A stretch of 64,000 nt of DNA from Botryllus schlosseri (Eukaryota): positions 1 through 64,000 of the forward strand of contig CM119371.1 in NCBI GenBank assembly GCA_051294905.1, read 5' to 3'. How positions within the stretch are numbered: position 1 is the stretch's first letter; the number at the start of each line of letters is the position of its first letter. Below are positions 1 to 64,000 of the stretch, in pieces. The position numbers were made by a program, and so were the translations under genes. The notes under the pieces were generated by a model. It worked only from the letters and a program-made list of their open reading frames with translations, had not been told where the DNA came from and made no database searches.

Positions 1-44
1 CTGCTAATGATATATACGTCATAATAGATCGTATTGACCCGATG

Positions 45-17130: not shown

Positions 17131-17564
17131 GAAAAAATCTACCGTTTCCCTCCCATTTTCGACTCGTACATTTTGACATCGTATGTGCACCTACAATCTA
17201 CATCTTATCCGAGTCGGAGGGAAAGCTTTACATAGCGTACGTATATTTCGATAGCATGAATATAATTTTGAATATATGGACATGACAAATATAACTAAAC
17301 TGTATTCATTAATTCTACAATTTTCCAAACAGCTCTGTGGCCCACCTCGAATTACTGATGTGGCCTACCGCAGTGGGCCATGGCCTACCCATTGGGAACC
17401 CCGGACTATGTATATAGGTATGCACTGAACCTAAAGTAGCCTACATCAGTGCTCTTCAACCTTTTTCGTCGTGGCACACCCTTTTAACATTTTCTCGAAA
17501 CTCTTACATCCCTGTCCATATAACACACCGATAACACAGAAATCCGCATTTCGATTGCATATAG

Positions 17565-21411: not shown

Positions 21412-22273
21412 CAGTGGTTCCCAAACTTTTTCGGTGTGAGGGCTAAATTTAGAATTTCAGAGTACGGTCGGGGCCGCACGAATACTACGGCTATGAAACG
21501 GACCCAAACAATCATCATGGCTATTTCGGAGTAGTTTTATTGCCCTGACGAGATTTCAAAACTGTACACTGTTTACCGCTACTTATCTGCTACATTGGGT
21601 GTCCGTTGAGTACTCACGTGATTCACGTGAATCAGCTTTTCTCGCCTAAACGCGCGAAGCGCGAGAAATTTCTTTAGTTTCATGACTGAATCGGTCAATA
21701 TGATCGGGAATTGCATGCATTATTGCTATCAATTTTCATCCTGTCTCTGTTCACGTAATCTGATTTACTGGTAGAGCTTAGTGAGGTGTGTTTGAAAAGG
21801 TATAGGCCCCCTCAATAGTAATTAAACATCTCCGGGGTATACCCGTTGGCAGGAACGTAACAGCACTTCGTCAGGACCCCGGGCTCCCATAGGGTGATAT
21901 ACTGACCCCGCATCACGTTGTTCGCTTTTTCCACGAAATTAAAGTTGTACTGTTTAGTGAGACAGCGCGACTCATGAATATTTCGATATTTTTCCATGAT
22001 TTTCCTCCTGTTTAAAAAGTTATCAATACCTATTTATATCTATAGCTACTGCTCGTTCAACTGTAAAGTTAGGGCACATTGCGTTGAAACAGCAGTGACG
22101 TAACGTTAGCAGTCTATACTCACAACTTTCCTGCAATTCTATAATTAAAAACTACAGAGGCCAAGCCAAGCCATAGTATTTTATAAATATATATATTTTT
22201 TCATAAATCGATTTCTGAATATATTTTGGGGGCCGCAAGTAGGCTATCTGGGGGCCGCACTTGGGAATCACTG
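21412..22273 (+). mobile_element. hAT MITE, short form of the element at 28989-31001
   Basis: TIR CAGTGGTTCCCAA/TTGGGAATCACTG; perfect TSD gtgtagac. Confidence 0.9.
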
Positions 22274-40839: not shown

Positions 40840-41003
40840 ATGGCAGATTCGTTCAAAGTCGTCGCCATATTTCTTATTTATCAACTTGCATATGCAATCG
40901 CATTTAACCTGATTGTTTCACCGAAGACGTACAGATTCTCACCAGGAAATGAAAAGGATTTCGGATATTCTGTAGCGTTGGCATCGTCTTATGAGCAGAA
41001 TGG
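40840..41003 (+). CDS. Integrin alpha exon 1: signal peptide and start of propeller repeat 1
   Basis: MADSFKVVAIFLIYQLAYAIA-FNLIVSPKTYRFSPGNEKDFGYSVALASSYEQN; donor GG/GTAAGT. Absent from the ORF track because it is short. Confidence 0.88.
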
Positions 41004-44000
41004 GTAAGTAACCGATTTGGTCGTTCTACGTATATCTCGAAGTTGGCAAATCAAGATTTGGATTTCGACTGGTATCAAATGTAATCGTAACTCAAGCGCA
41101 GAGGTGAAATAAAATTTAAAAGTTCGCTATCAAATATGATGACAGAAGGAAGAAATATAGCGTTATGATATTCATTTATCATGCCTGATGAGTCTTATTC
41201 ACCAACCTTCTGAGGTCGTGAGAGGTAATAAACCTATATTCAAATTCTCGCCCGCTTTTGTTAGTATGTAGAAGGCCCATGCAGCTAGGCTATACGCTGA
41301 ATTAGACTTGAATGGGTGTGTCAGACTAACTGTGGGACTACAATATCATTCCAAAGGGTTGTTTACAGTGGATGTGTTGATTACCGCGTTGTTGTCGATA
41401 CCATATGGCAGGTAATTACTCTGATATTAAATATATATGGTTGCGAGGAAATGGAGCGGTCTACATTTACTGCTTATCGTTCATTGCGTAATATGCATAT
41501 CGGCGTTTGGTTTATATTAGTGGTACGCGTAACACTATAGTGGTACGCGAGAGCTTTTTAGGTGGTACGCGAAGAGTGCTGTGAGTAATATAATACCTAA
41601 GATTGGCGAGCTTCTGCACAAGAAAAAGTTGGAATTATCTCATTTTCATAGAAATCGCAGAGGTGATGACCACCAATCGCAGATCATTTGAAAAAGAGAG
41701 TAAGGCATTTACCCTTCAAAATCCATCGCAACTCGCAGTGCAGCTATATAACTTCCCGAATACTTCGTACAGTTCTCAAAGCGCACAATAAACCAAACTT
41801 TTCAAGACCGACATTTCCTTGTAATTTCGGAGAATAGTAAAGTAACCACAATGTTGGTAATTCGCTTACTTGTACTGATGCTTAAAATGCGACTAGAAAA
41901 TGGTAAACGTGAGGATAATTAGTATATTTTAAATGTGAATATTCGATATAACCAAACAGAGTTATAATGAGTCGCTTTAACAATACTTTATTTCGAAACG
42001 GAGCAGTCAATGCTATGACTTGGAATCGGACTCGAGTCATAATAGCACGACTCAGACTCGACCGTTAATTAGCTGACTTGGACTCGGACTCTACTCGGTG
42101 GTGAATTAAAATGACTCAACTTGACTCGAGTCAAAACTATTGAAGTGAGATGGGCTTGTGACTCGGAGCCTTGCGACTTGGTTACAAACCAGAATTTCAC
42201 CGCCAAATTTTATAGCCAGCGCTCCTCCAATCGCCTATTTAATGGTCAGCGCCCCACGCCCCCTTCATCCTCGCGAGCGACTCCAGAGGCGATCGCGCCC
42301 ACTTTCGCACCATCCGAGGTTAGGTGTGCGACGTCTCAACTAAATCTACATATGCCTACTTGACTACTTTTCGGACATTCATATTCGACTTCCTCTTAAA
42401 GTATTTTAAACATGTCTTGTAAATGTATGCCTTTATACTTGCAACAGAGAAGCACGTTTCGGCGTTAACTCTGTTTCTATGTGAGTAGAAACTGTGATTA
42501 CATTTACTATCTCTGATGATCATCTGATCTTGTTTAGGGTGTATGTAGGTAGCCCGAACAGCAATGCAGATGAAGAAGAAACGGGAGGTCAAAGAGATGG
42601 TTCTGTTTACTATTGCCCGATTCAAGATAAACCTGAAAAGGTCAACGGCCATTGTAGGAACCTCAACCTCATGAACAATAATGACAGCGATGGAAAGGGT
42701 GAGTTTTAGAAGATAAGGTATTTTGAGAATCACTAAGAGGGAGGATAAACTTACTTTTCTGTGTGTACAGAGTAATGAAGATAGGACCACGCAGCTTGAC
42801 TGGTCCTCAGTCATTGAGCCATCGAGTACTCTGACGCATAAGGGTTGATATAATGAAACAAAACACAAATATAAGTGATACCAAGTCACTGCAAACCGGG
42901 CAAGAATAAAATTGTCAAGCAATCAAAACCAATCAATTCATAAAATTGAAAATAATGTTTAGTAGCCTACTAGCAGATATGATCACTAAAAAAGTAACAC
43001 TTCTACTTTTCTGTAATCCACATCAGGCCGTTTTTAGACTCCTTGCACTTCTATTCAACAGTTTCTAAAACAAAATTACCAACAGTTTCGCTACACACTT
43101 ATATTTGCGCGTTTTGTATTTTGTAAAGTGGTTAATAAATCGTGGGAAGTTTTACATCACTTTTAAAAGTATAACTCATGATCATCGATAGAAATAGTCT
43201 TTGTGTCCCGGTATCTGAATATTTTTCCGAACGTGAACATATTTACGTTGTCATTATAGTCATTTTGCCCAAACCGTGAACGTGCACATTTCAATATCAA
43301 GTTGATTAACTATACTGAAAGTGTGATACGCTTCTGCCAAGATGTGAAACTATTTTTATGATTACTTCTGAGACTTCTCGCTTTTGGTATATTTCTCGTA
43401 TTTGAATAAAAAATCGTGGTATTAGTTCTATTTCTATTTCTATTTTAATAACAATCCTGACTGTAGCCTATATCCAGTACTATAACGTTGCATATATAGT
43501 ACACACATTGTGTTACACAGTATCCAAGGGCCTCTTCTAGTAATGGAAGATGTTTCATCCAACCTCCATAGTGGAGTCCACATCCATCAGTATCACATGA
43601 TAGGTCCCCAAGAAAATTTGTGTGATATTGTGTTTTTCTATGTAACCTCAAACTAGGCTAAAGTCAAGATATCGTTGCGATCTAAAATGTTCAGTCCGAC
43701 TGTGGATTTACATTAAGCCCACCTCAATTTAACAGCTTAATTTTAAATGAAACCATTGTGTATTGCATATTAAACTTAGACATTGCTTATCTCTACCAAG
43801 TTGGAAAGTTCAGAAATCTATGACCGGCGAGATGACGCTGGCGTGCCACAGTATGGGAGCCAATGATCTAACTATCCCGAATTATTCCCAGCTAATCACT
43901 CCACGTTGCTGAGTGTTGACTTCGAAGGATATCAACCATTGAAGCAGATGATTGATATAGATGATTTCAACTGGACTGAACACCAAGGAGAGACACAGAC

Positions 44001-47000
44001 ACATAATACGGGGCCGCATTTCGATCACACGTACGCAGGTGAAAAAGGATTCCGTATAATTGGTTTTGCTATCACCCGTGGGGCGTACACAAGGCTCTCG
44101 ATTGGAGATTCGGGTCTTCGGGGTATTTTGAGAAACAATATATATCTCTATCCAAGATGGTCAACATTAGAATTGCGATCCTCGAATCGTTTCTAGGACA
44201 GTATAAGAAAATAACCTCCTACCAAATCAAGCCCTGTGTCAGTATCCAAATTTTATTATATATAGTATTTTGTATGGTGGAAAACGTCAATGCCGTACGT
44301 AAATGGTCACTCAGCCAATATGAATAGGATGTTGTATATTTTCGCCTTGATATTTTTTCGGAACACACACCCACTCAAAATATACATACACAATATGTTC
44401 ATATAATATATAGTCGCAATGAAATGAAACTGAGTTTTGTCCAGTTTTCAAATTTTGAAGGTCAGTTTTCTAAACTTGAAAATAATCAAGGTTTTGAAAA
44501 TTTGTCAATTTCTTTGGCCATGCCTTGGCCATGGTTATGTCTGTCTCATTAAATCAACATTAATCTGGGCTAATACTTGGCTGAAAGAAGATGAAAACTT
44601 GAAGTAAAGTCAATTTTCTCGAAATGTAATATGGTCATCGGACAATGGACATAGGTCACTTTGATTCCACTGCGACGATAAATGCATACCATGAGTGCAT
44701 GGTGTGTAGGATGTCACTGGACAAGGAATGGTGCAGCACCTTGTAAGCATTCTAAGTTTTGTATACCACGCCTCCATGGTATCCCGGTACGTTAACTGTA
44801 GTTTGACCTCATCTGGTCATACACAAGCTCCAGTTAATGACAGCCGAACTGCGCTTCACAACTAGGTGATCTATCTATGAAGGAGTGTGTAATAGCAAGT
44901 TCCTAAACTAAAAACATCACGATGCAAATGTGTCTTAATCGTATTGTATGTGACGTTAAGACGTATTTTTTTCGGCGCACCTTCATTGACGCTTTTCTCA
45001 TCATCGATCAACAGACCGTTTGCTATATCGTACTCACGTTACGCTTCTAATCGTAATATCACTTTAATAGTAACACAGATACAATACATCAACTAGTTTT
45101 CCCATTTAGGCCCTCGCACATGCGTATATGTAGGCTTACCATATTTTGGAAATCTAAAAGGGGGACACTTTTTCAGAAATTTAGGACTTGCAAAACCGGA
45201 GAAGAATTCTCAAAAACCGGCCAATTTTTCCCACTTTGTGATCGGTCATCTTTCCGCTCAGATCTCAAAATACCGTTTTTCTCTACACATTGCCAGGTGG
45301 ATGACATATCACTCGCAATTTGCTCTAAATCTGACCTAAATTTTCAAAAAAGTAAGCCTATACCTTACGGCCTTAAAAAGCGGGACGTTTGGCTGACTGG
45401 TCGGGACGCCGGGACAAGACGTTAAAAAGCGGGACTGTCCCGCCTAAAACGGGACGTATGGTAAGCCTACGTATATGTACGCTGCAACTTGAGCTATTCT
45501 CATCCATATTTATCAATCATGTAACCCGCAGTGGCGGCTCGTCCTATAGGGCAACTGGGGCATTGCCCCACCTAAAATTCTGTTCAATAACCATTCTTTA
45601 CCATTTATAGACGCATAACAATCTATATGTACCGAAATCCCAGCGAAAATCGTAACTTCTTGTCCTTTCGCTTGTAAATGCCCATGTATAGCGAAGTCTC
45701 TGCGAAAATCGAATTCTCTTCGTTTTTTCGCTTTGCGAATGCCTAGCCGGGGCATGCCCCGGTAGCGCACATAACAAGCTTTCACTGCCTATTCTCTCAA
45801 AGCCGCGCGCAATAAAGAAACAGTGATTTACTCTCTCCTATTCATAAAATTACCGAGCAGGTAGGGCAACATAGCATGGTTGCCCCTAAGGTGTGATGTA
45901 ACAATTGTATCTATATCTGAACTCGGTTACCGTTATATGCGTTTAGTCGACCTTTGCTGGATAGGTCGATTTTGATGGTGTTTCACACCATGATAATTCT
46001 TGAAACTTGGTATGTCATGTCGTGATGGTGGTATTTAACACTGTCCTAAGTTCTACTCAAAGTTTAGGGTAGTAATTCCGTTTCCAAAGTTGAGTGTGTG
46101 CTGATCCGTCATGTATCGCAAACAGATTTTACTCAAAAGCTGGTATTGGTATCCATTGATTTTGACGATGTTCCATACCGAGATCGGTCATGACATTTGG
46201 TACGGTAAGTCTTAATGTTAGTATCCAACGCTGTACCAAGTTTCAAGTTTGACACTGAACTATGTTAATGGTAATTTCGTTTCTTAAGTCGAGTGAGAGC
46301 TTACTCGTCATTTATCGCAAACATATTTTACGCAAAGCCGGTATTGGTCTCCATTGATTTTAACGATGCTCCTTAGCTAGATCCATCATGAGCTTTTACA
46401 TGGTATGTCTTGATTTTAGTATCGAACGCTGTGCCAAGTCTCAAGGTTGTCACTCAATGATTAGGGCAGCAATTTCGTTATCAAGGTCGAGTATGGCAGA
46501 GATTTGCGCTGATCTGACACTTAGCCTACCTAACGCATTGCAGATTTCACGCAAAAGCCGGTGTATCTGTGTTAACGCTAACTGTGTTCCATACTGAGAT
46601 AGGTGATGAGATGATGATATCATGAAACAGTTTATTAACATCCTCGGTTTGCATTCAAATATTTAGTTTTATTTTATATTCTCCAATGTCAATTTCATCG
46701 TGAAATTGTGGCCTTCAGGCCATTTGCTCACAATTACAACCCCTGTCAAGCGCGATAGCTGTTTCGTTTTCGATGGCGGCTAACAGCAGCTGATCGCTTG
46801 ATCAGCCTATTCCTCAGTAAATTTTAGGCAAAATTCGGTGTTGGTCTGTTCGTATTGGTTTTGACAGTGTGCCATACCGAAAACGGTCATGATGAGGCTG
46901 CTTCTCGATGATTTCATGTAACAGTGTACCTAGTTTTCGGCTTTCATTCATGTATTTATTCGATAATATATTTTCCGACGGCGATTTTGCAGCAGACATA

Positions 47001-50000
47001 TAGACACTATAGACCGTAAGCCGTATGTGTCGTGTGACAGTCTCCAGCCTCAAGGCCAAAATCTCTCAAGCTGTACCGGGACCGAATTTCCGAGGCTGCT
47101 ATCCGTAGTTCTTCAGAATGATATTTTGGATTCAATATGACATGTCCTATCTATGAGATAACAATTGCGTATGTGTCCGAACTCAATGACCTTTCCAGTT
47201 AGGCTTACGCAATCTCTCGAGTTATAGTCATTTCTATTTCTGCAGATAATTAGTCAGGTATAGTGCGAACTAGTGCTGGGCAAAATCGAGTACCTGGATG
47301 ATTCGATTCTGAATCACGTAATATGCTTCGAGTCGAGTCGAGTAATCGAGTATCACTCAGTACGACGTCATAACAGAATGTAATACTTGAAGTTCAAATA
47401 TTTACCATTTATGCCACCACAAAAAATATATTTTCTGTTATCCATCTCATAAAAGATACTTTGGTATTTTTTCGACCATACCGATTTCATTGCACTTGGT
47501 GACAATGTTGTGGGATAATCATGACTTCGTAAATGTGCTACGTCCAGTAACCTTCGTAGCTTTGTATTATATGTTACGTATGCTACGATACCACCCATCA
47601 AGGTTTCAGGGCTTCTATAGTATCGAAACTATAATTCTCGTTGATAAATTAACTTTCAGTGGCGAGGTGCGTATTATTTCAGTACTCGAAAAAAATCGCC
47701 TTTTACTACTCGACTCGAATAATTAAAATTAATACTCGAATCATTGTGCCCGGCCCTAGTGCGAACATGAACCGTGTCGAATCTTTGTTCCGTACGCCGT
47801 TTACGCAGTTACCACACTTCAAGTCACAGCTGGATTCAATCTCTACAGAATTATACCATCCATGTCTGACATACGCAGCGGGTCGACTCGCGGTTATGTC
47901 TGTATAATGGTTTATTTTAATTAAGCCCTCGGCGTGTGTCATAAAATGCCGCATAGATTTTCTTAAACGAACCACAAAGTTACAACAACCGGCAGAAATT
48001 TCGCTACACTGACCTGAAACGTTTCGTCTTACTCTAGACCAGGGGTCACCAACCCGGTGCCCGCGGGCACCAGGTAGCCCGCGAGGTCCAGATGTGGTGC
48101 CCGCGAGCCTGTTCTGAAAATAGATCGAATAGTAGCATTTGCCAATATTCGTCAGATTATCACCAGTGAGCTTTTAAATAGATAAATTGAGTGATTTAGC
48201 TATTGTTGTTTAAATCATACTATAACATGTGACTTGGAAATGACAATACATATATATAAACACTTAAAATGATGATAGCAAATATCCCCAATTACAACCA
48301 GTAATATACCAACATGTAGCCTAATCGAATCACAAGATATCGAAGACTGAGCACTGAGCACTACCTAAACAGGCGACATATGGCGGAATGCTATCCACGG
48401 TCTTCTTGAAATGTCGGTGGTGAAGCTGGACAGTGGACATCCAGAACAATGACACATGAGCAAATGGCATTACTATTCGGTAGCAGATAGCCGTGTTTCT
48501 CCTTTTCTGTAATAGTTGTCACTGCCCGGTATAATGCTCGACAAGTGGATTCGCTTGTCAATCAAATCCTTTCGAGACTCTTTGGCAACATATACTTACC
48601 AAGGTCATTCTGACTTAACAATGCCCCAATCCCGAAGCCGGCGATCGCAACGCTGACAAAGCCGGCACAGCTCGTGTGATACTATAGATCAGTGGTTCTC
48701 AACCTTTTTCACCTCGCGGACCGGTAAAATTTCAAAAAATGTCTGGCGGACCGGTGAACTTTGAAAATTGAAATGAAGCCAGAATGTAAAGTATGCAACT
48801 GTTTTTTTGCAATTATATGGTGCTAAAGAGTGACATTTAAAGGGTTTTGATCGTAATTGAATATCTTCATGACGCCATCCATGTGATTTTATGGTAGTCA
48901 GTCTCCAGAGTCGAGGTAAAATTGCCTTATCCAGTTGAACGTGCTACCGCCGAGAGTCGTTTACAGTCTTTCGCGCCAAAGGCTGCGAGTTTAACCGACC
49001 ACGCCAACTCGAACCAAGCACCTTGTCGGGCTACCTTGCTCATTGCCCACTGCCACCAGACGCATAGGCTACTCTGGCAACTACGAATACAATGCGTGCC
49101 GCAAGAAAACACCTTGCAGCAAACTATACCGGTTATCCGGAAATCCGGGCCACAAAAGCACTTCGTTAGCCAACCCCCAGAAACGTTGATCTTGGACCCC
49201 CACAGGGCGATAATCCAAACTTCCGGGGCTTCGCCCCCAGACCCTGCAGTTGGGGGTGTGTTTTCACCTGTACTTGTGAGCACATTCATTCTACTCAGTG
49301 TAAGCAGAGAGTTTATCCTGCTTAATTGCGCTAACAGCGAAAATTATCGATCATTCATGACTGAATCGGTTTTCTCGGTGAGGAATTTTGGCACACCTTT
49401 CAGAGTCCCATGTTAGCCCAAACTTCATAATGGGCTGGTACGTCGTGGCATGGTAATGGCTGACGCCGAAATGGCTATTTCTATAAACCATGCGTATTTC
49501 TCGTAGAAGGGCACCTAATATAAGCAAGACATTTAGTGATACTAAATCGCGTAAAGCGCGAAAAGAAATTGAAAATGTTTGGAAAACTTTCAGAAAAATA
49601 CGCTATGATTTATGTTCATTTGTAAAATAATCATGGGCTCTTTTCAATGGGCCCCTCTCCAATTGGGTTTGGGTGCCCCAGTTACGGTCCTGCACAAAAT
49701 GAATGAATCGAAAACGAATGATCGCGCAAACTGCGCTGTTTAGCGATGAGTCAGCTCATATCTGTTCTGTATACTTGTCGCCCACATGTCGTCAAATGAC
49801 ACTCCTTGAACTTTAAGTCAAATTGAACATGTTTCCAGTCCTAATGTTACCTCATGAAGTTCTGAATAATTTTAAAATTTGATAATTTATTTATTTTATT
49901 AATGGACAAGCCTTCAACATTGCATCTTGAAATTAAGGTATAAAATTGTGATATACCTGGCGGACCGGCAGGAATGTCGTCGCGGACCGGCAACGGTCCG

Positions 50001-53000
50001 CGGACCGGCGGTTGAGAACCACTGCTATAGATAACTAAGGTGTAAACCTTAGCGGTGCCTTGTTGACACGGAAAAGTACAGTGGTGTATGCGCAGCAGCT
50101 ATGAAGGTTGCAAGCATGTTTGGTTTAACTTATCGTTGTGAATCGGTCTTCTCGGACATGACCTTTATCAAAAACAAGCACAGAACACGCCTCACTGATG
50201 CACATCTGGAAGACTCACTCAGAGTAGCAGTTTCAAGTTACATACCAGAGTACAGCGCAATAGCTGATAACATGCAATGCCAGCCTTCCCACTGACTGAT
50301 ATAAATAGAGATAACAAGATGTCCACTGTCCAGTCCAAAGTTGACTTGATTTGAGTTGACTGTTGCATTATTTATACAAATAGGTGCTATGGTGCTAAGT
50401 AATTCATAATTTCTTAATAAATGCCAGTGAAGAGCTAGTTGAAATGAGATGTTTTGATTTTACAAGACTGTCTTGGAAAGAAGTCTTACTGCAATGTGAT
50501 TACTGCCCTATGAATATCGAAGTGGAAATTCAGGAGGGTAAACGGCAGGAGTAAATGGTGCCCTTTGCATCAATCATTATCAAAAAGTAGCTCTCGGGTG
50601 CAAAAAGGTTGGTGACCCCTGCTCTAGACTTCTCATACCGCCGTGATTACGATGAAGTCTTATCCGGCCAATAATATGTTTGCGGAATGCCAGGTGACAG
50701 ACCCTGCCCCAATTCACCCTGCCAAATTTTGATCTAGGCAATATAAAAACGTCAAAGGAAATAATGCCAGTTCGGTATCATAAAGAATAACTTGGTAATT
50801 CTCGGGTATATCTATTTAATACCGTTTTGTCACGATGCTGTTGGTCGATCAATATACATCACAGAAATGTCGTTTCAATGTACAATAAAAGATTGTGCCA
50901 TAGCTACTGCAGCATATATTTTAGATGCTGCAATTGGATTTAGTTTAGCAATCCTTAACAAGGGATATATGGAGCCCTTGGAGGTACGAAGCACCATGCA
51001 ATATCAATATACAATGGAATCTTTTCTGGGCATATTCAATCAACTCGAAGAGTTTCTTCACGATGCACGCGATTTCTTGTCAATGGATTTCGTGATTTTA
51101 ATAATAGTAACCAAACAAGTTCAAACATACGCATGAATTGAATATGAGAGCACGGTACAATATTAATACTGGTATCGCTTCAGACTGTTGGGATGCATTA
51201 GTGCAGCTGGGAGCTGTGCAATCAGCTTGTGGCGGTTGTTATTGTTTTGTTATTCATGGTGATTCGATTGGTATGGCCATTTACGCCAGGCCGATATTTC
51301 CTATAATGATTCCTGATATGCCGACTCATAGCACGATTCACCTTCGTTGTACGCTTTTTTCGTAAATACCTTTTTATGGCAATGGGCGTATCACTGCGGT
51401 ACTCGAAAATAATCGTCGCTCAATACTTGACTTGACAGTCGAACACTTCCTGCTATAGTATGCCCAATCCACGCCAACGAAATGGAATAGTTTGAAAATG
51501 TAGCCAGGGGGGATCTTGTCGATATGGCAGTGCGGGTCTTATTACCATACACAATTAACCTACCATTGAATTCCTATTTGTCACCCAATCAGTTCAGTTT
51601 AACGGATAGCCAAGTTCGAACTGGCATGGTGCATAGGATCATAGTAAGCCCTATTAGCCCCATTCACAGCAACAAGAACAACAACAACAACAACTATTTG
51701 CAGATTCACGAATGAATTAATAATAATAGTTTCGCGTATCACTATCAAATATTTATCTTTTCTCAGCCCTTGTGATCAGATTCGTCGGTAGATTTGATGG
51801 AGGGTGCGTTTTCTAAAGTTTCTAGGGCAAATTCTGAACAATGTGGCTTCTTCTAGTTAGTGCTCTTCAACCGGGGTTGCCGTACACCCTAGGATGTACC
51901 AGAATTTGCAACGGGTGTACCACTCGAATGGGGTGTACAGGGGTGTACCAGATCCGAATTACAATGAGCCGATGGCTAGCTATCGCAAAGGCAGGTTTAT
52001 GGGTCAGTACAGGTTGACGCACAGGTTAATGAGCAATATGATACGATGTTATCTCAAGTGTTAAGGCCTCTGCACACTGACCTCGCGACGCAACATCGCG
52101 AGTTGCGCGTTGCGAGTTGCGAGTCGCAAGTCGCGAAGCAATGCACACTGGTCCCGGCAGTGCCCACAAGCGGCAACTACAGCTCTTGCGCGTTCTGTCC
52201 GAAGTCTCGCAAAGGATACACTTTGCACAGCTCCCGATAGATCGCAAAATGAATATTTCAATGGGTATACATGGGTTTGTTAATGAATAAGATGACGTCT
52301 TATACGCACACTTTTCCATTAACGAACCAATATCATATTTCAATGCTGAAAACGCATAATCTGGGTGACCCAGTTAAAGGCGCTATTTCCGGTTGCCGAT
52401 CCAAATTTCTGAAGTTCTAGCTGTAGCCTATTATGCTACAGACACCAAGCCTTTCTGTATTCCACTGCCTCAGTGACTGCATCGACTGTCAAGCACTCAT
52501 ACATTAATTTCTCGGTATGATATAGAACAGGGGTTCTCAACTTCCCTCGTATAACGGGCCGCATTTTCACACTAAAAGACGCCGCGGGCCGCAGAACATT
52601 ATCACCATGTATTTGCGAACCACTACTAAATTTAGGCTACTGTAGCCTATTTACCAGTCTTATACGGGAATTTAGTACATTTTTATGCATTCTAAAGCAT
52701 TAATGGAGAGTGTTCGTAAGTTTGCAGTTGCTGTTTTTTGTTAGGATATCTATCTTCAAGTGGCGCAAGTAAATCCCTTCATGGAGCGTACATTCTATTC
52801 GTTGCCATGTTGGTATATGTACCCTTCAAACCCTTCCACCAGAGAACCGAACTCGCTGTTTCAATGCGTGAGCGAGCAAGTATTAAAATTACGGTGACAT
52901 TTTCGTTACAGAGGTTATTATCACTTTGAGCTCTCAGTGATATGAGAAGAAGTCAGACTTTCGGGGACATTTGTGAGCAAACCAATCAACTCTTCTCCTT

Positions 53001-56000
53001 TCCTTCCATGGCTGGAGCCCTACACCAGTAGTTACAGAAGCCAGCTTTTTCAAATTTATGTTTTTCACTGGACTCCTTCCCACGTTTGCCCCGTCAGCAT
53101 TTCCTCTGGAAATATGTCCAATCTGATAAAACACACCTGGATAATTTGCTATGCAATGTGTGTGCACTGTGTGCAGTCGATGGATTCGTCCAATGCTAGG
53201 CGCTATAGTAGTCTATGAGTGGCAACGTACTGTGTTTCAAAACATGCGATTAAGATCGACTGAGATAGCTGTTACTCTTCTGGTGACTGTTGAATCAGAC
53301 AACTGTAGCAGTGTAGCCTCGAAATTTATCAGGTGATGTTGGACTTGCTGCTAAGTTCCGGAAACAGCGAATATTCGCACAGTAGGCCTACGTTAAATTT
53401 TTATTGAATTCACACATTCTCTAGCAGACTCTTCGGTTTATTGATAATCAAATCAATTTTGAACAATGCGTCTGTCACGTCGTCGGCAATTTTAAAAATG
53501 CCTCGAAACATGGATTGCTGGGCTTGAAATCAAGCTAACTGTATAACTCCAGATGAAACTATAGTGCTATCATTTCAAGCTTCTAGGCTTTGTTACAACA
53601 AATGTTCTTCGACAAATGTGACACATCGGTCTTCCATAACAATACTGTACCAGTAGTAATTTCGTTCATATTGAAAGATGTCGCGGGCCGCAAAAGAATC
53701 GTCTGCGGGCCGCATGCGGCCCGCGGGCCGCGGGTTGAGAACCCATGATATAGAACAACATTCAAATGCCTTATAATTTTATTGTAAATGAATTAAGTCT
53801 TAACAATATTCAAATATAACTCTGGGATTCTTTCCTTTTCAATCTTCGATTCGCCCTCAGGTATCAAGCATGGAAACTGACCTTAGGCCCGGTTGATTCA
53901 TTCTCCATAATGATGCATAATAGTCCATTTCTGACTTATAATATTAGCCACTACAATTCGTACCGAAGTCTGATAAAGAGGAGAATAGACGAAATCTAAC
54001 ATCAAGAGTTACACTGCTGCTCCCTAGTCAAAGAGATTTTCAGACGTCGTGTACTGAGATGTACCGGTATCTGACATATACATCAGTGAAACCATGACAT
54101 ACCACGATTATATGTACCTGCTAACCCAGTTTCTAACCAATGTACACTGTACAGGTTAAAATGAATCAGACAAGGTATATATCTAATAAATCCACCTGTA
54201 GACATACAATGACTGAGAGTTTCGCGGTATCGGTACTGCCGTGAGTGCCGGGGCTGTTTGGCCTTTGGTAATTACCAAGTACCGGTACTGCTTACAGTAG
54301 AATGCTCTCTTGCAGTCAAGCTTTTAGTTTTAAAAGTTTTAAAATGACCTCGAATCAGTCTAAATTCAATGAGGAAACAATTATAGATGCCAAAACACGC
54401 AATACCCGGACAAACTATTGCGGTGACATAGAGCTAACGATCAGTAACTGCTGACCAGTCGCTCGCAACTCGCGACAAAGTTGAAAATTTTCAACTTTGT
54501 CGCGGAGTTGCGCAACCCTGTCGCAGACGGCATGTTGCGAGTTGCCAGCGACTCCGGTCTGCATGGTCCAGTCGCAGACAGGCGCGATTCTCTCGTTTTA
54601 TCGGGTCGCGAGCTCAGTGTGCAGAGGCCTTAATACTGTACACCGCTTGATCGTGTCATAAGCAAATATTTCTCCTATTCATTTAGCCGTCGGCAATAGA
54701 CCGATGGTTCCGTTTGGTGTTGGAAAGTATGCAGTTAACAAACATGTGTTCGGCTAGTCATTTGTCTTTTAGTGATTTTTGAAGAAACCGCCGCGATAGC
54801 TCAAACTCCTTGAATCGGTACTTCCTACCTGACGTTGATAAATACCGCAATGCACATGAATGGAGCCAGCCAGGGTCGAAACAGCTTCCATGCTGAAATC
54901 GAAACCCTTTTGTTTTAAAATGCCGATTTTATGTCCAATATTTCTACATACATTTGCAATTTAGTATTTTGGTATTAGTGATGCAAATTAGCGACAATAG
55001 ACTGTGTATAGCGGCATACGATCTGAGGTTACTGACATCTCTTGCAGCCCATGTGCTACTATCGACTGTGTTGTGTATAGTGTGGCGCAGCCCTGATACG
55101 CAGTAGGCTGGTGCGCCTGCTATCATCGCTGATCTGAATTACCGCTTCTGCAGCAGTAGCTTTCCTACTCTCTCCCCAATGCTGTTACATTTAGGTTGAT
55201 TATCGTTCGTAATGCCATGCTGTTTTTGGGCTGACACGAAATCAATTCCAATTTGCGTGGCGGGCGGCCTAACTGGCTGCGCATAGACTCTGTGAACAAA
55301 TACTATTTTATTCATATCCAACTTTTTTGACGGCAATAACTCCGCTTCTACTGGTTGGAATTGAACCAAATTTGAAGAACATCGTTTTTATAGACAACCT
55401 AATACTTTCATGGGGTGAACAGAAAAATTTAAAGTTTTTAGTTATTTATTTTTATATAATAAATAGAAACTTTCTTCTCCCGTAGCAATGCGGATACCGG
55501 TTGGAATTGAACTAAATTTGGAGTGTAGGCTTAAGTTAGTTAACCTAACAATTTTATCAAGTAGCCAGTACGATTTGAGAAAAAAAGTCATTTTTGAAGA
55601 CCCCTAATGAACAGGGGTGTACGAGTTTTGAGCAAACGTTAAAAGGGTGTACCACGTCGAAAAAGGTTGAAGAGCACTGTAATCTAGTTGACCAATTCGC
55701 ATTAGTCACTTTGTTGCATTCTGTTATTTCTTGACCTCTCGTAAGGATTGTCGGTAAGATATTGGAATCGCCAAAACGCACCAGAAACAAACTTTTAACT
55801 GAGGAGCACGCGATTCAAAGTTGATATTTCTATATAGTATGCATCATTTTCCTCTGCTGTTCGCATATGTATTTTGGGGCTCCGATTGTAAAGGGCGCCA
55901 TTATATGAAGATGGAAAAACGAAGTCGCTTTGAATCGCGGCTAGCGCGAAGAAAATTTCCAGATCAATTAAAATCTCTCAATAATGAGGGAGTCAATTCG

Positions 56001-59000
56001 TAAATTCAATTTGCATGTCGACGGCCGCCAACACATACTAATTCAATTGCGTGTTGACGGCCGCAGAAATTTGCTTTCATACGGCTTCCCCTGATTTACA
56101 ACAACTCTACTATGTACGCCTACGCTTTACATATAATATATATTCATTAGTGATTTTCATAACATTCAAGTGCTCACTAGCGATGGTGGCGAAGTTGACC
56201 TGACTTATATCAAGGCACCCTGCATGCTTATCAATTAGGTGAAGCGCGTAAAATGCTCTGCCCGCTGCTTTGATGAACGGCTCAATGCCGTCTGTCTGCC
56301 GTAACTCTGACACCTCATTAGATTTATACAGTATGTCGTGGCGCGATGCACACATAGGCTTGCATAAAAACAAAGGGTGTTTTATCAAACTTTGTTCAAA
56401 ACATGTTTTAAACAGGGTTTCGAACAAAGGACTTAAAATGAAAAAAATTGTGTTTATTAGGTTGTAATATTATGCAATAATTGTGTAAATACTTTCCAAA
56501 AACATGTGGTCGTGTTCAGGGCTTTGGAGCAGCCGTAAATTTAAACTGCTCCAGCTCCGGCTCCGGAGCTTTCTTCTATCATACATTACCTCCGGCTCCA
56601 GCTCCGGAGTCGCATTATTACCACTTCTCCGGCTCCAGCTCCGGCTCCGGCTCTGAAATTATCGAATGGGCCTATATATATCAGGGGTGGCCAACCCGTG
56701 GGCCGAATGTGGCCCGCGAGGTAATTTCCTATTATATTATCGAAAATGAATTGCTCAGATTGTGAACTTGCAATGTCAACCAAAAATTACAAGTCTGGCT
56801 GCGACACTTGGGATGTTGATGACGAAAATATCAGTTCTGACGCATTGGCAGATCCAGCGTACAGTCACTTTTCCAGTAAATCGTCGTACATTACAATAAA
56901 CTAAAATGGTAGTGAAATTTTTCTTCACGCTTCGCGTGTTTAATTGTCACACGACTTCTTGCTTGGTAGACTAACCCCTATTGAAAATGAAAATAAACGC
57001 CTAATTTATCCGATTGAGTCTAACTGCATTCGCAATTACGGGAGAAAGTCTTTTCGTGTTTGCGCTCGCATGAAGATCGTCGACGGTGAAATGTAGGCAC
57101 AAAATGATTGTTGCATATTATCGGAGACCTTCGATATCGAAGTGGCCAGACGGCGAAAAGTCGTGTCCTTGCAAACTGAGACTAGCCGGCGGTATACAGT
57201 AGACCCGCAATATACTCAAGTAATAATATTATTGACCTAGTTTATTTATTAACTTTGAAAATTTTACCCGCTTGGCGCGGCTACTGGACCGCGCGCTCAT
57301 TCGTCAATTTCATGTGCCCCTTTAGCCAAAAAGGTTGGCCATTCGTGGTCGATATAGATTATATTAATCTATTCATATGTTAGTTATCTTATAGTAATCT
57401 AGAGTCTGACAGCCGTCAGTAACACCCGATGTCGCAACGAAGACTGAGGTGCCGCCGTGCCGGCTTGTGACCTCATAATGAATACTTGTCAATTGTTGAT
57501 AACATTAATGTTGCAATAGAACGCACTTTACTCTATGCCATTGCTGTGCACAGCATTAAAATTCAGGCCTGCTGTTCAATAATGATAAATCAGCAGATGT
57601 GGTTGTTGCATTAATAATAGCATCTTATGAAATACGTCGGAGCCGGAGCTACTCCTCAAATAACGGGCTCCAGCTCCGGCTCCGGCTGAATTTTATGTGG
57701 AGCTCCGGCTCCGGTTCCGGCTCCAGTGAAAATGCATAGCTCCGGGGCTCCGGCTCCGGCTCCAAAGCCCTGGTTGTGTTGCATGAGCCTACGGACAATT
57801 ATCACTCGATATAGCCGACGTATATCGATATGGGATTGTTGGAACCCTGAAAATAGTCGGTTCAACAGAAATAGTACATATATTTCGTCGAAGGAGCTAT
57901 ATTTACCCCATGTTTTCAATTGTAAATGTCAATCCACTGTGACGTCACAAATGATACTCTTGACGTTATGACTTGAAAAAAATAAAAAAATAAAAACATG
58001 TTTTAAATAAGGGCCTTGTTTTAAGTAAGTTTGCTTTAAATAGATTTTTGTTTTAAATGCAATCCTATCCACACAACTTGAGGTCAAAACAAATTGAATC
58101 AGCACAGATAGTTCATGGTAAAGCTGCGCAGATCGTTGGTTTTAAATCGCCGTTATAACACTTTTATGTCATTTAATGAGAACAGCAAAGTGTCAAAAAT
58201 CAAGACCATATCTCAGGGTAAACTCATAGTACCTCGATAAAGCTAGAGGTTACCGACCACTGATGTCGGGTTAATATCGTTCGCTAAAAAGCGAGTCGAC
58301 ACGTGCTGATTAATTTGGCGAATCAATTACCGCCATCGGCTGGGCGCTTCTCTTCCATATCTAATAGTCTTAAGGTTGCAGCTTATTGAAATTGAAGTTG
58401 CATGTACTTGTACGTTTGTACATGCTATGTATTAAACTCTCTGTTTAATAAACGCTGTAATATAACGCTGTTATAATTAAGCCTGGAATAGACGATCCGT
58501 ACGGAGCGCATGCGTTTAGTGGGATTGGTGAGATAGTGAGATTGCGTCATCGTAAGGGTAGTAAACAACATGCGCTCAGCCGTGACTTTCACGTTCGATG
58601 ATCATCACCTGCACAGTACACAGTTGGGATTGTAGGGAATATTCACAAATGTTTATTGAGCCTGACATTATTGTCGCTTTGGTGTTTGAGATTGAGGGTA
58701 TATTGGTTTAGATTTAGAAGTATGCCCCGTTTCAAAAAAGTTTAAATGTAGGTTAAAATCTCAAGCCTTAGGAAGAACAATGCTAAACTTTTAGGTGTTC
58801 TGGCTGACTTTATGTCTTCCCCCGTTGGATTCTGAATGTTGATGTGTACAATGCCGAGCATGGAAAGACTCGTCATACTTTACATATCTTCAAGTCCATA
58901 TCACAGAATAATATCACGCCAAATTGTGTTCATGGCTACCTTGTTATAGTAGTCTGGATTGGTGTGATTGTACAGCTCTATACACAGCGGCAATTAGATT

Positions 59001-62000
59001 CTCGTCTTCTATATTATTCATTTTGTTTTGCAACTGAAATTAGCATAAAATCGCATGATTAATCACTGCAACTTCAGAAAGTGCGATGTCCGATCACTAC
59101 AGACCTGCCAACGCAGCTGAGCGGATGGAAAATACGCATGAAAGCGAACGCGTGCGGGTTCTCACACTTTTGCTCTTTCTGCTCCTCATTTTTTCCTCGT
59201 CCCTCTTCTCTCTCGCACGCATCCGTTTGAGAAGAGAAATAAGGAGAGAAAGAGACGGACGCGTTTACGCATCGTCTATTCCAGGCTTTACACATTGGTT
59301 GCATGGATGGTGGGTGATATAAACTTGTTATTGTTTCAGCTGGTAAAAAGGGCCATTACATGTTGTTAGAAAGCTCGTCACGCAGTGTTGGCGCCTCAGC
59401 CATGATGGCTACTCCAGAACTGCCTCAAAGTACAGGATCATGCCTCAGGTAAGAAATGACATGTGTTTTATTCATGCAAATTCCACTCATTATTCAATGA
59501 ATTGTGTCCGTATTGTCGGCAGCGTGACTACACCTCGTAATCATAATGAGGGTTTCAATTAATCTCATCCGGTCAGAACACGCAATGTGCAATGAACTCA
59601 CACCTTTATATAGTGGATTTGACGACGATGCAATGATTGTTCGATTGGTTACAGGCATAAATAGAGCACGGCCTATGGATCATAGATAATATCGAAGTTT
59701 TAGAAATGCCCCGTAAGCTTGATAATATATAATTTGATTACCAGCTGCATATATAGGGGTTTTCGGTGAGAGGGATAGGTATCGGATTTATCCGTATCGG
59801 CTCAAAATTGCAATATCAGAGTCATAAACCACCAAGAGAGTGGTTCCAACCTACGAGTCAATACGATATAAGCTGCATATTTCTCCACTTATTTGTATTA
59901 GTCGCGATGCGGCTTTGGTTTGGGTGTGTATTGTGAGGATTACGAATAGGGCATAGATATATGCCGTAGGCTACAAATGTAACTAGAAATGCAAACTCCT
60001 CAAATTTTGTATCGAATTTTATTCCTTATTTAGATATAATCATTGGGATTTTGAGTCATGATAAAGGCTATTGAATAACCGCCTTGAATCACAAGAACTT
60101 GTTGGTTGGAGAAATGTGTTTAGCGCAAGTAACGTACTTTGAAAGTGCGCATCTGATGGATAGAATTATAGATAACTAACCTACGGATAGATACGCAACA
60201 CCCGTCGTCACGCTTGCTTGCCCGGAGGAAATTACCTCTCAGCAATCTGAGCGCAGCATAATTGCTAATCCCATAGCTGACGACCTGAGCGCTTAAATTA
60301 AATGAAGTTGATCTTATTTGAAAGCTACTGTCGCGTTGATTCTGAAAATATACATTAAAATTTCATTAATGGAATGGAACCAGCTCGAGATAGCCTTCCA
60401 AGTCTGACAACCAGCATTGTTGCTAACAATGGCAGCGATGTAGCACAATGACCATAACAATGGCCCTCGCATGGTTGAGATTGTTTACAACAATTCAGAT
60501 TTTCAGACGTTGAGGTGTATTTTGCCTGGGTTCCGCTACCCTGATCAGATTGTAATGTATATTTTCGGAATCAGTACGACAGTAGCTTTCAAATAAGATC
60601 AACTTCATTAATTTAAGCGCTCAGGTCGTCAGCTATGGAATTAGCAATTATGATGCGTTCAGATTGCTGAGCAGTAACTTCCTCCGGGCAAGCAAGCGTG
60701 ACGACGGGTGTTGCGTATCTATCCGTAGGTTAGTTATCTATAATAGAATAGATTAAATGGGTTTATGAGGCAGAGACCCCATTGGTCCAAATTCATATAG
60801 TAGTACAACAGCAGAGGATATTTAGGATTTTTTTTGATCACTATGTAACTTGCAATTAATGTACTTTGAAAGTGCGCATCTGGTGGAGAAAATCGATTAA
60901 ATGGGTTTATGAGGCAGAGACCTCATTGGTCCAAATTCATATATTAGTACAACAGCAGCGGATATTTAGGTTTATTTTTTGATCACTATGTAACCTACGT
61001 ATAACGGTTGAGCATAGGCCTTTCGAATCAGCGAATGAATAGGCTACCTTTTGATCCTTATTTCTGTAAAACTATGAAATGAGTGTGCACTTCTTTCCCT
61101 TATCAGAATTTAGCATCAATATCAGAACCCGGCGGCGAATTGAGAAAAAACGTAACATTGCCCTCTAACGGTTAAAATTATGAATATACAGTCAAATACA
61201 GATGTTCCACATTTGCGATGTTGATGAGCCAATTTCGTCATCCATTTACGTGTACTGGATAGTACAATCCATTTTTCATTTACACAGCATTTCCTCGCGG
61301 AACGGTTGAAATCGTCCAGCGGTCTGCATCCGGCCTGTAGGCCTCATGTTTGACATACCGGAACTACATTATTTGACCTTTGGTTTTCTGTTTCGCACAA
61401 TTGAAGAAGCCAAGCCTAGATTAGGACCGAATGTAGTAGTAATATTGGTTTACAAATGCACCCAGTAAAAAGTTACGCGTTCTGTAAAAGTACCTATGCT
61501 CATACTTACAGTCAACACATACTTATAAGTTCTGTGCGCAGTCTGATCAAGTATTATGTATATTCTGGCACTCTTTCTACTCTTACAGATTTTGGTATCA
61601 CATGCGTGGGCGGCATTTGGGGAACTTGAATGTGTATGTGTCGTCAGCATTACTGGGAACTAGAATAGTATGGACTAAGTCAGGCCACCAGAACGATACG
61701 TGGCATGAAGGCTGGACTTCGGTGATAGCAGAAGAGCCTTACAAGGTGAGCAGACATCAGCCATCCAAAATCTCGAGTTTGGCCTGTATGTTGAAATTCA
61801 CCCATTGCAAAAATATCTTACTCTTACCTTGCGTTTCACAGTTCACACTTCTGTTTTTTTTTAATAGGAAAACGTAGTTTAGGGAAATGTTTGCGCCACT
61901 TTCACGAGTGGCGTCATACCATAGGTCGGAATAACCCTGGTAAATGACAAATGATTATTACATTTTGGAAATTCGACCTAGTCGATGTGTCATAAGTCAC

Positions 62001-62627
62001 ATTGCGTTAGTCGCGACAATGTATCTTTCGATTTCGAAACTAACTTTCTACAATTAACTGCCAAAATTTTTGCGACCGATATATCCACTTTTTAAAACGA
62101 AGTATCCAAGTACCTCACAAACATGTTGTGTTTTTGACATTCAGATGTTATCCACAGCAGCATAATAATCCTGTTGGCTTGGTTATTTTTATCCGAATGT
62201 TTCCGTGTTTCTCACTGTGAGACTGTGCCGTTTGCACTAATCTGTTAGTTATACTATGACACCCTAGTGAGGCTGTCTGATTTCACATAATTCATGTCGT
62301 TTCGACACCCTCCTATCTTTTCATTATAACAAAATTCTGTGGTGTATTGACATGATAAAATTGATAATAAACAGTAACGAATTTAACTGCGACAAAATCG
62401 TATGATAGCCTATTCCAATATAACTGATAGTAACACCTATAATTTAATCAGCTATGTTACCTCGTTTCTAATTAATTTTCAGATTTTATTCGAAGGGGTG
62501 GTCGGTCCGGGTTACGAGTCAGACATGGGACTAGATGACATTGTGCTATATCAAGGACTTTGTGTCGAAGATGAGCTGACAGAAAAGGCCTCTCTTGGAA
62601 TGACATTAAAAGTCGACAAAGAATCAG
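40840..62627 (+). CDS. Integrin alpha-like gene, 5' partial, with an inserted MAM domain: join(40840..41003,42538..42698,43892..44038,59340..59448,61589..61745,62483..62627), continuing beyond
   Basis: All junctions are GT-AG, intron phases 2,1,1,2,0,1 are consistent, and there are no stops in 883 nt. Motifs in order: signal peptide, FNL, DFGYSV, VYVGSP, GSVYYC..C, MAM motifs, KASLGMTL. Confidence 0.85.
42538..42698 (+). CDS. Integrin alpha exon 2: rest of FG-GAP repeat 1
   Basis: TGTTTAG acceptor; VYVGSPNSNADEEETGGQRDGSVYYCPIQDKPEKVNGHCRNLNLMNNNDSDGK; donor G/GTGAGT. Confidence 0.9.
43892..44038 (+). CDS. Exon 3: N-terminal part of the MAM domain
   Basis: TTCCCAG acceptor with an upstream CTAAC branch site; SVDFEGY...DDFNWTEHQGETQTHNTGPHFDHTY; donor CAG/GTGAAA. 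Confidence 0.85.
45131..45469 (+). mobile_element. hAT (Tip100-like) MITE
   Basis: TIR TAGGCTTACCATA/TATGGTAAGCCTA; perfect TSD cgtatatg; CGGGAC repeats. Confidence 0.9.
45529..46950 (+). repeat. Second copy of the dispersed repeat at 15175-17130, with ~190-bp tandem units
   Basis: Inverted collinear similarity; this copy lacks the MITE found at 15204-15723. Confidence 0.8.
47271..47758 (+). mobile_element. hAT-type MITE (copy of 15204-15723)
   Basis: TIR TAGTGCTGGGCA/TGCCCGGCCCTA; perfect TSD gtgcgaac. Confidence 0.92.
48040..50621 (+). mobile_element. hAT Buster/Charlie deletion derivative retaining the transposase C-terminus (50101-50295)
   Basis: TIR CAGGGGTCACCAACC; perfect TSD ctctagac; MFGLTYRCESVFSDMTFIKNKHRTRLTDAHLEDSLRV...QCQPSH. 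Confidence 0.92.
48690..50024 (+). mobile_element. hAT MITE nested in 48040-50621
   Basis: TIR CAGTGGTTCTCAACC; perfect TSD ctatagat; CGGACCGG subterminal repeats. Confidence 0.92.
50850..51620 (+). pseudogene. Possible heavily decayed LINE reverse-transcriptase fragment
   Basis: A (Q)GGILS-like motif at ~51505 and an ILNKG motif upstream at roughly RT-like spacing; many frameshifts. Confidence 0.3.
52065..54629. mobile_element. TTAA-flanked TIR element (PIF/Harbinger- or Kolobok-like)
   Basis: TTAA-GGCCTCTGCACACTGA ... TCAGTGTGCAGAGGCC-TTAA; TCGCGA/GTTGCG subterminal motifs. Confidence 0.75.
52528..53747 (-). mobile_element. Second copy of the Buster-type element at 17565-19023
   Basis: Collinear similarity; TIR CAGGGGTTCTCAAC; perfect TSD atatagaa. 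Confidence 0.9.
56517..57772 (+). mobile_element. hAT MITE with (GGCTCC)n subterminal repeats
   Basis: TIR CAGGGCTTTGGAGC/GCTCCAAAGCCCTG; TSD gtcgtgtt/gttgtgtt. Confidence 0.88.
56682..57347 (+). mobile_element. Innermost hAT MITE (family of 27037-27825)
   Basis: CAGGGGTGGCCAACC ... GGTTGGCCATTCGTG; shared internal ATCAGTTCTGACGCATTGGCA. Confidence 0.8.
59340..59448 (+). CDS. Exon 4: MAM domain
   Basis: TGTTTCAG acceptor; GKKGHYMLLESSSRSVGASAMMATPELPQSTGSCL; donor AG/GTAAGA. Confidence 0.88.
60134..60995 (+). repeat. ~130-bp tandem duplication; the first unit is interrupted by the MITE
   Basis: GTACTTTGAAAGTGCGCATCTG at 60134 and 60861; GATTAAATGGGTTTATGAGGCAGAGACC at ~60751 and ~60895. 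Confidence 0.88.
60167..60742. mobile_element. MITE with ~165-bp TIRs and a 7-bp TSD (P-element-like)
   Basis: TATAGATAACTAACCTACGGATAG... and its reverse complement; TSD atagaat at 60160-60166 and 60743-60749. Confidence 0.85.
61589..61745 (+). CDS. Exon 5: MAM domain
   Basis: CTTACAG acceptor; FWYHMRGRHLGNLNVYV...VWTKSGHQNDTWHEG...PYK; donor AG/GTGAGC. Confidence 0.92.
62483..62627 (+). CDS. Exon 6: end of MAM and start of propeller repeat 2
   Basis: TTTTCAG acceptor; ILFEGVVGPGYESDMGLDDIVLYQGLC then VEDELTEKASLGMTLKVDKES; probable donor CAG/GTGAAA. Confidence 0.88.
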
Positions 62628-64000
62628 GTGAAAAAGCACCAAAATTTCTAAAGCTTGCCGATGGCCTTGACAACATATTTTTAAAACGGCCTACAAGCAC
62701 AGTGAACACTGAACAGCGATAAATATAAGGTATACTCTCAGCGCAAATGGTGTGTATTCACACCCAAGAGCTGAAACGTGTGGAACACGAGAACAGACTT
62801 AAACTCAGAATTATATAGCGGTCAAAAATTGCGCGCCCACGTGCATACATGATTGGATTTTTAATCGATTCATGGATCATGGATGTATATTCACACCTGT
62901 ATATCAGGACTGGCACAAGGGTGGAAATACACACAGTTTTCGCTAAGAGGGTAAGTGGAATTTGAGGTTTGATAATGGTGATTAAAGCAGTCACTGTTGG
63001 TATCGAAATACAAGTGAAAGTACTGTCAGAATTTTCAACGCATTTACTAGTAGAGTAGGGATTTACACGAGATGCGATAATACATACAAAATACGTCAAA
63101 TGAAAGTTGCACGCGATAGTCTTGAAGGTTTTCGAATATAAGTAGGCCTTGTTCAGATTGTTGATTTGATCAAGCAGTTCAAGTGGTTACGCTCATGGAT
63201 AGTACCGGAATTGGAACGTATCCTCATGACTGACACATAATGATCAATGCCAACAGAAATAAAGGTGTATTTCTGCAACATATGTTCACTATTGTCCAGT
63301 TACCGTGATACAAAGGCTATACAAAGGCTATGGTTATATGCTACAAAACAAGAATACCAGAATATGTGGTGCAAGTGGACACAGCCAACTTGAGTACTCC
63401 AAATATGAACTGCTCCATTACAAGTTGACGTAGCGACTTCCAAGACATGCCAAAACTTCTGGAAGGGGCACTGGAAAACGGAAAGTGGAAAAGTACTCAA
63501 TGAAGTAGGTTCAAAAAGAAAATTTGGGTGGGGCCTGCATATAAGTAGGTAATCGAAGGTGGACACTTTCAAGGTGCAAGATATATCATCACCGCAACCG
63601 CAAAAATACTATTGAAATTGTCAATAGGTACCACTTTCGAAGATACACTCAGGTAACGTTAAACAGCGTCATCTCATGCGGTTCCTGTAACCATTTCACT
63701 CATAATCACATGCATACAAAGCACAGAACTACCTTCCAATTTTCAAAATCGAGAGGGGAAACTAAGTAGTTTTGCATGAACACCTGTCCAAGTAGGAGTG
63801 GAAGTGACTTATTAACACAGAACCACTTTACAACGTATCGCAAGTAAATGAAACCTGCTTGAGTACTCCGACAAAGTAAACATACTCAGCCACTCTTTGC
63901 CTCGGTGTATAGCATTGCTGTAATTCGCGTGACATATCAGTTGCATCGACTGATTTACATGAAAACTTTAGTTTTTAAGTTACAAAAGTCATCTCAATGA

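Follow-up and report, generated by a model that had tools for sequence, protein, structure and literature searches.

Integrin alpha chains are taught as existing in two forms, with or without an inserted alpha-I domain (the von Willebrand factor A-type module, VWA in Pfam). Among ascidian proteins, alphaHr1 of Halocynthia, said to have been reported by Miyazawa et al. in 2001, is reportedly an alpha chain with alpha-I at the vertebrate position. The same position is given for the Ciona chains Ci_alpha1-8 in the article text of Ewan et al. 2005 (PMC1145181). According to the sections available from PMC4237329 and PMC12422189, alpha-I first appears in tunicates, and those available from PMC5465252 present ascidian integrins of hemocytes as complement receptors resembling CR3/CR4. 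The locus described here lies in a 64,000-nt stretch of the genome of the ascidian Botryllus schlosseri (GCA_051294905.1, contig CM119371.1, positions 1-64,000), hereafter the window. In a gene model read from the genomic sequence, six exons encode the N-terminal part of an integrin alpha chain whose beta-propeller accommodates an inserted MAM domain between repeats 1 and 2. The exon structure, the identity of both the integrin and the MAM parts, and the insertion point were established for this locus, and the arrangement is conserved in two ascidian lineages, represented by Styela and Ciona. Very probably, the window contains the 5' part of an integrin alpha gene of the ascidian alpha-I clade with a complete MAM domain between repeats 1 and 2, most likely a "double-insert" gene that combines MAM with alpha-I.

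Vertebrate alpha-L, alpha-X, and alpha-M (PDB 5e6r, 3k6s, and 7usl) are the closest solved chains to a full-length Styela clava relative of the gene (P0139, described below), with E-values from 3.5e-71 to 1.5e-63. They have in common with this relative the propeller and legs, with alpha-I between repeats 2 and 3. The FNL, FGYSV, VGSP, and C..C motifs encoded in the window align with vertebrate alpha-I integrins. Unlike the window product, alpha-L, alpha-X, and alpha-M have no domain between repeats 1 and 2. The solved chains align to P0139 from its residue 270 or 274 on (their own residue 61 or 68), thus passing over the MAM domain. The MAM domains of neuropilin-1, MDGA1, and enteropeptidase belong to the same fold family, PF00629, as the MAM encoded in the window, but they form successive units of a multidomain ectodomain, whereas the window MAM is looped out of another domain, and its ends must therefore be near each other.

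An earlier note on this DNA had proposed six exons splicing in frame and a series of integrin and MAM motifs. The exon borders proved to be exact, and all the motifs (FNL, DFGYSV, VYVGSP, GSVYYC, the MAM motifs, and the LGMTL strand) are present. The window is AT-rich animal DNA with a GC fraction of about 0.40, in which the exons are short and the introns long. The features of the gene are listed below, with a slash marking the splice sites.

40840-41003, plus strand: exon 1, with the ATG at 40840 and the donor GG/gtaagt; end phase 2.
40840-40902, plus strand: signal peptide in exon 1, 21 amino acids, hydrophobic, ending A-I-A (judged by eye).
40903-40911, plus strand: FNL in exon 1, followed within the exon by the FGYSV strand of repeat 1.
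42538-42698, plus strand: exon 2, with the acceptor tttag/G and the donor AGG/gtgagt, encoding the remainder of propeller repeat 1 (VYVGSP ... GSVYYC ... C disulfide loop), then a linker into MAM; end phase 1.
43892-44038, plus strand: exon 3, the N-terminal part of MAM (DFEG, DDFNW, TGPHFDHT); phase 1 to 1.
59340-59448, plus strand: exon 4, MAM (GHYMLLE ... GSCL); end phase 2.
61589-61745, plus strand: exon 5, the MAM core (RFWYHMRG ... W..SGHQ..W.EGW); end phase 0.
62483-62627, plus strand: exon 6, the C-terminus of MAM (FEG ... MGLDDI), with its last Cys at 62561-62563; the same frame continues in the 3' part into the start of propeller repeat 2 (EKASLGMTLKVDKES); end phase 1.

All six exons are bordered by GT-AG, mostly in good consensus. 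With end phases of 2, 1, 1, 2, 0, and 1, they join into an open frame without frameshifts or stop codons, and the product reads, in order, leader, FNL, FGYSV, VYVGSP, GSVYYC...C, MAM, and EKASLGMTLKVDKES.

The identity of the two parts was assessed with profile hidden Markov models (HMMs), run on all 2,254 stop-to-stop frames of at least 20 amino acids in the window. The integrin profile was built from the first 260 residues of 70 integrin alpha chains that contain no MAM domain. Its top-ranking frame was that of exon 2 (E 8.9e-6, profile positions 53-97), the second was that of exon 1 (E 6.1e-4, positions 5-50), and the third had an E-value of 1.1. The matches of exons 1 and 2 fall in profile order. 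The encoded N-terminus also has the characters expected of an integrin alpha chain, namely a signal peptide, a start of the F/Y-N-[LIV] type, and the FG.SV, VG[AS]P, and G.VY.C...C motifs of repeat 1, and the start in exon 1 aligns with the F/YN[IL] starts of other alpha chains.

The MAM profile, an HMM of 163 positions, was derived from 67 MAM domains of non-integrin proteins. At E ≤ 1, it matched only the frames of exon 3 (E 2.5e-10, positions 18-50), exon 4 (E 1.9e-5, positions 47-82), exon 5 (E 4.6e-14, positions 80-136), and exon 6 (E 1.2e-7, positions 125-162), which stand in profile order. The joined product scored 162.9 bits (E 5.6e-49) over positions 18-162, while the first ~17 positions of this general profile were unmatched. 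In the Pfam scan suggested by the earlier note, the MAM family (PF00629) was found on exons 4, 5, and 6, again in order (profile positions 41-75, 77-129, and 131-157). The E-value for exon 4 was 4.6e-4, and exon 5, with 33.5 bits against a cut-off of 26.4, was the sole exon above the gathering score by itself; exon 3 alone gave no Pfam MAM match. Exon 5 also matched the solved MAM domains of neuropilin-1 (5l73), MDGA1 (5oj2), and enteropeptidase (8h3s), with E-values ranging from 7.6e-6, obtained for neuropilin-1, to 5.7e-3.

MAM domains have four conserved cysteines. The window encodes only the C-terminal pair (in GSCLRFWYHM and QGLC), and the N-terminal pair is missing in both the window and Styela and kept in Ciona (CNFEDC). 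The missing pair marks a variant of the MAM domain and does not exclude it from the family.

The integrin and MAM parts are linked within a single exon, since the end of MAM and the LGMTL strand of repeat 2 are encoded without interruption in exon 6. A tblastn comparison of residues 240-291 of the Styela chain with exon 6 showed 50% identity (E 1.5e-10) across the MAM end and the LFGMTL strand. When the whole P0139 was compared with the window, tblastn recovered three exons in order, including exon 3 (E 1.8e-4) and exon 5 (E 7e-15, 48% identity). From the leader up to the CAP..H motif, the joined product keeps the order of P0139 without rearrangement, and 125 residues in 315 aligned columns are identical (39.7%); the corresponding value for the Ciona relative (P0201) is 109 of 327 (33.3%). 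In an alignment of nine sequences, the window, Styela, and Ciona chains had MAM at an identical site, preceded by the C..C loop of repeat 1 and followed by the LG.TL strand of repeat 2, and just a short loop occupied this site in fish and viper alpha-L/alpha-D, fish alpha-4, and a hemichordate alpha-8-like chain. The central claim of the earlier note, that repeats 1 and 2 of an integrin alpha chain are separated by an inserted MAM domain, is thus borne out by the HMM matches, the linkage in exon 6, and the common insertion site in Styela and Ciona.

Relatives carrying the same insert were sought with HMMER, using exon 5 against 1.84 billion representative proteins, and 554 matches were obtained at E ≤ 0.001. 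Those scanned with Pfam were multi-MAM or protease-type proteins, save P0139, in which a single exon 5 match lies at residues 190-241, the place that corresponds to exon 5 in the window product. This protein is the Styela clava RefSeq entry XP_039273967.1, 1472 amino acids long and named "integrin alpha-X-like" (version.2, P0200, is named "integrin alpha-1-like"). Like the window product, it has a signal peptide, FNL, repeat 1, MAM in the same loop, and a repeat 2 start of the LFGMTL type. The window shows the first ~330 residues, whereas the Styela chain is known at full length: Pfam identifies MAM at 114-268, VWA at 342-512, three FG-GAP repeats, and the legs (Integrin_A_Ig_1/2/3), and the C-terminus contains a transmembrane helix and GFFESKYK. 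An ESM Atlas search with residues 1-345 of P0139 gave no usable match.

The second relative was among the 114 matches (E ≤ 1e-10) obtained with the integrin part of P0139, residues 269-1050. It is encoded by LOC100179088 of Ciona intestinalis (P0201, XP_078488821.1, "integrin alpha-2") and is 1725 amino acids long, with MAM at 141-300, VWA at 373-542, three FG-GAP repeats, and Ig_1/2/3 according to Pfam. Further entries of this Ciona gene are isoforms X1 and X2 (P0314 and P0315) and the 200-residue UniProt fragment F6V610. The Ciona chain is more distant from the window product, and it retains the N-terminal cysteine pair of MAM. In both relatives, which are automatic gene models, alpha-I lies between repeats 2 and 3 and its DxSxS metal motif is intact (DGSDS in Styela and DESTS in Ciona). 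Both also end in a membrane anchor followed by a GFF tail. The earlier note had assumed that a different module takes a loop neighboring that of the known insert; MAM does occupy this loop, but the relatives carry VWA/alpha-I as well, and one insert has therefore not replaced the other.

Vertebrate chains have I-E-G in the linker after alpha-I, and its Glu is an "internal ligand" for the beta subunit. The corresponding linker reads L-E-S in Ciona (P0201, about residues 550-560) and F-P-N, with no Glu, in Styela (P0139, about residues 520-530). As far as these linker sequences indicate, the relay from alpha-I to the beta subunit may differ among these ascidian chains.

The MAM tree comprised 70 of 994 near-full MAM domains, represented by the top domain of each protein and selected with an HMM seeded on the three integrin MAMs. 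The MAMs of the window, Styela, and Ciona formed one group, with a support of 98 in the Shimodaira-Hasegawa-like approximate likelihood ratio test (SH-aLRT), within which those of the window and Styela were sisters (SH-aLRT 94). None of 500 label shuffles was as clustered as the three integrin MAMs. The window and Styela MAM domains are 50% identical. This grouping points to a single insertion event, which would predate the split of the Ciona and Styela lineages. It also suggests that the source of the window is closer to Styela than to Ciona.

The layout already figures in automatic models of RefSeq and UniRef, under the ordinary integrin names "integrin alpha-X-like," "alpha-1-like," and "alpha-2," and the precomputed Pfam lists of the relatives already contain MAM. 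In the literature searched, including by accession numbers, no description of MAM in an integrin was found; the supplement of Ewan 2005 and Miyazawa 2001 lie outside this literature and could alter the verdict on the novelty of the layout. The portions covered of PMC12705340, PMC7390872, PMC2397394, PMC12549020, PMC4237329, PMC1145181, PMC5465252, and PMC12422189, which include oyster, coral, and sea-anemone studies, contain no such description. "MAM" as a whole word occurs 0 times in the portion covered of Ewan et al. 2005 (PMC1145181), with the sequence supplement not covered. Therefore, the MAM integrin layout appears to be new to the literature searched, not to the databases. The supposition of the earlier note that no MAM integrin had been described stands for this literature. 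Two of the 114 integrin-region matches (P0139 and P0201) carry both MAM and integrin families, and the architecture is already in databases under ordinary integrin names.

The way in which the Ciona catalogue was built is relevant here. In the text available of PMC1145181, the survey set out from 12 alpha sequences of the annotation, which "clearly represented fragments of genes," the Ciona genome was searched with 26 human integrin chains as queries, and the models were rebuilt from fragments. In our reading of that text, an approach based on human queries would pass over MAM exons. Table 1 of the same paper gives lengths of 161-170 bases for exon 1 of Ci_alpha5-8, compared with 164 coding bases in exon 1 of the Botryllus gene, and the position of the first intron may be shared among ascidian alpha-I integrin genes.

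Downstream of exon 6, one further exon could be proposed.

62819-62920, plus strand: candidate exon 7 (weak), with the acceptor tatatag/CG, which fits phase 1; reads A-VKNCAPTCIHDWIFNRFMDHGCIFTPVYQDWHKG.

The open frame containing it spans 62803-62946, and the tatatag/CG acceptor sits two codons past a cag acceptor, which was rejected since it has the wrong phase. Candidate exon 7 has the same 19-residue Cys-to-Cys spacing and His as P0139. Its FTPVYQDWHKG aligns with the FTPLFQKCTKK-type stretch found directly before alpha-I in fish and viper alpha-L/alpha-D, a match that is not significant alone, and no Pfam match was obtained for this exon. The top matches of the 54 residues following MAM, none of them significant, were mostly alpha-I chains at the homologous position. 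The six exons are certain, and exon 7, a candidate only, is probably the seventh. By analogy with the Styela and Ciona relatives, which carry alpha-I, the Botryllus gene would encode an alpha-I domain beyond base 64000.

Several observations weigh against assignment of the locus to a functional integrin alpha gene with MAM and alpha-I. Taken singly, exons 1 and 2 had no Pfam family match, and their comparison with PDB gave 0 matches for one and 1 chance match for the other. The layout is rare, since MAM and integrin families occur together in only 2 of the 114 integrin-region matches, one of which is P0139 itself. On their own, the 54 residues following MAM did not reach significance (lowest E-value 0.24 in a comparison with 316 proteins). 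The acceptor tract of candidate exon 7 is weak, its phase-1 donor AAGG/gtggaa at 62920 is poor, an in-frame TAA follows seven codons past this donor, and the only strong donor (gtaagt, 62950) lies behind the TAA. Candidate exon 7 also has Trp where vertebrate alpha-I chains keep Cys. Comparison of the exon 6 peptide with proteins of 85-2000 amino acids yielded 22 candidates, none at E ≤ 10; exon 6 is thus without a close relative there, and therefore the organism's own protein model, if any, is not in that collection. The position of the sole strong donor, the Trp, and the lack of a close protein model with exon 6 would all fit a decaying or truncated copy of a MAM integrin gene, in which the 5' exons are intact and a full alpha chain is no longer made. 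We consider such decay unlikely, because the six exons contain no frameshift or stop and have GT-AG borders throughout, the conserved MAM positions are kept, and the product scores 162.9 bits against unrelated MAM domains. Moreover, splicing at the weak donor at 62920 would preserve phase 1, and this donor coincides with the start of alpha-I in the relatives; the Styela chain, too, is without one Cys of the exon 7 region.

It is highly improbable that the MAM exons are a separate gene, located in or beside an ordinary integrin alpha gene and joined to it by an artefact of the gene model. A 15.3-kb intron does divide the MAM domain, and automatic pipelines, from which both relatives come, sometimes fuse neighboring genes. 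Against this, exon 6 runs in frame and unspliced from the end of MAM into the integrin strand, and exon 2 ends in phase 1 while exon 6 starts in phase 0, so that skipping exons 3-5 breaks the frame. The insertion point is also common to Styela, Ciona, and the window. A motif scan of all six frames of the window found no alternative repeat 2 exon, no further integrin-like or MAM-like exons, including in intron 3, and no GFFKR tail of a neighboring gene. Read-through of exon 7 to the TAA would stop after ~336 residues and could give a short secreted protein consisting of a signal peptide, one blade, and MAM, rather than a membrane integrin. We give this very little credence, since both relatives are full-length chains and one blade plus a fragment of the next is insufficient for a propeller fold.

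The window also contains repeats.

44039-59339, plus strand: intron 3, 15.3 kb, which divides MAM and is filled with dispersed repeat copies.

Copies in intron 3, at 45529-47743 and 52520-53517, match 15204-18507 at 79%-88% identity. The upstream region and intron 3 have dispersed repeats in common, with identities of 79%-91%, and 21412-22273 likewise matches 28989-31001. These dispersed repeats are probably transposable elements that account for the length of intron 3. In intron 4, 580 bases at 60165-60744 match their own reverse complement at 83% and represent a palindromic element. No long coding frame was found in the 40 kb upstream of the gene. Positions 1-13961 form a near-perfect palindrome, in which each position i has its partner at 13962-i and 14 of the 6,980 pairs are mismatched (99.8% identity by BLAST). 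This 13.96-kb palindrome represents an inverted duplication of very recent origin or, alternatively, a fold-back artefact of the assembly close to a contig end.

If the locus is, as we propose, the 5' part of an alpha-I-clade integrin gene with an inserted MAM, the rest of the gene, alpha-I included, would lie past base 64000, and the chain would pair with a beta subunit. Ligand would bind to the alpha-I domain in a metal-dependent manner, as it does in other alpha-I integrins. The loops that join the last strand of one propeller blade to the first strand of the next occupy the upper side of the propeller, which faces the ligand. The MAM domain would thus be placed on the upper face, in the loop connecting blades 1 and 2, beside the alpha-I domain, which would leave from the next propeller loop of the same kind. 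In that position, MAM could provide a second, metal-independent binding surface. MAM domains of other proteins, such as RPTP-mu and meprin, act in homophilic adhesion or oligomerization. The surface might accordingly be a co-ligand site, or mediate receptor clustering or homophilic contact, within or between cells, or gate the alpha-I site. A role in hemocyte recognition is plausible by analogy with other ascidian integrins. That ascidians possess a class of alpha chains with MAM and alpha-I in neighboring propeller loops, in which MAM is a working second head that binds its own ligand or another MAM or gates alpha-I, is a tentative proposal, which we regard as possible but rather doubtful.

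If the proposed arrangement is true, MAM would be the first case, in any integrin, of an inserted domain that is not alpha-I, and would have arisen in the lineage where alpha-I first appears. Its retention in Ciona and Styela-like ascidians would show that the upper loops of the propeller took up whole domains more than once. Gene models guided by human integrins would miss the MAM exons, and ascidian integrin catalogues may therefore be incomplete. If MAM binds another MAM or its own ligand, these chains would represent integrins with a built-in homophilic or co-receptor mode. The MAM integrin would also offer a natural system for studying the way in which coupling arises between an inserted domain and the activation of the integrin.

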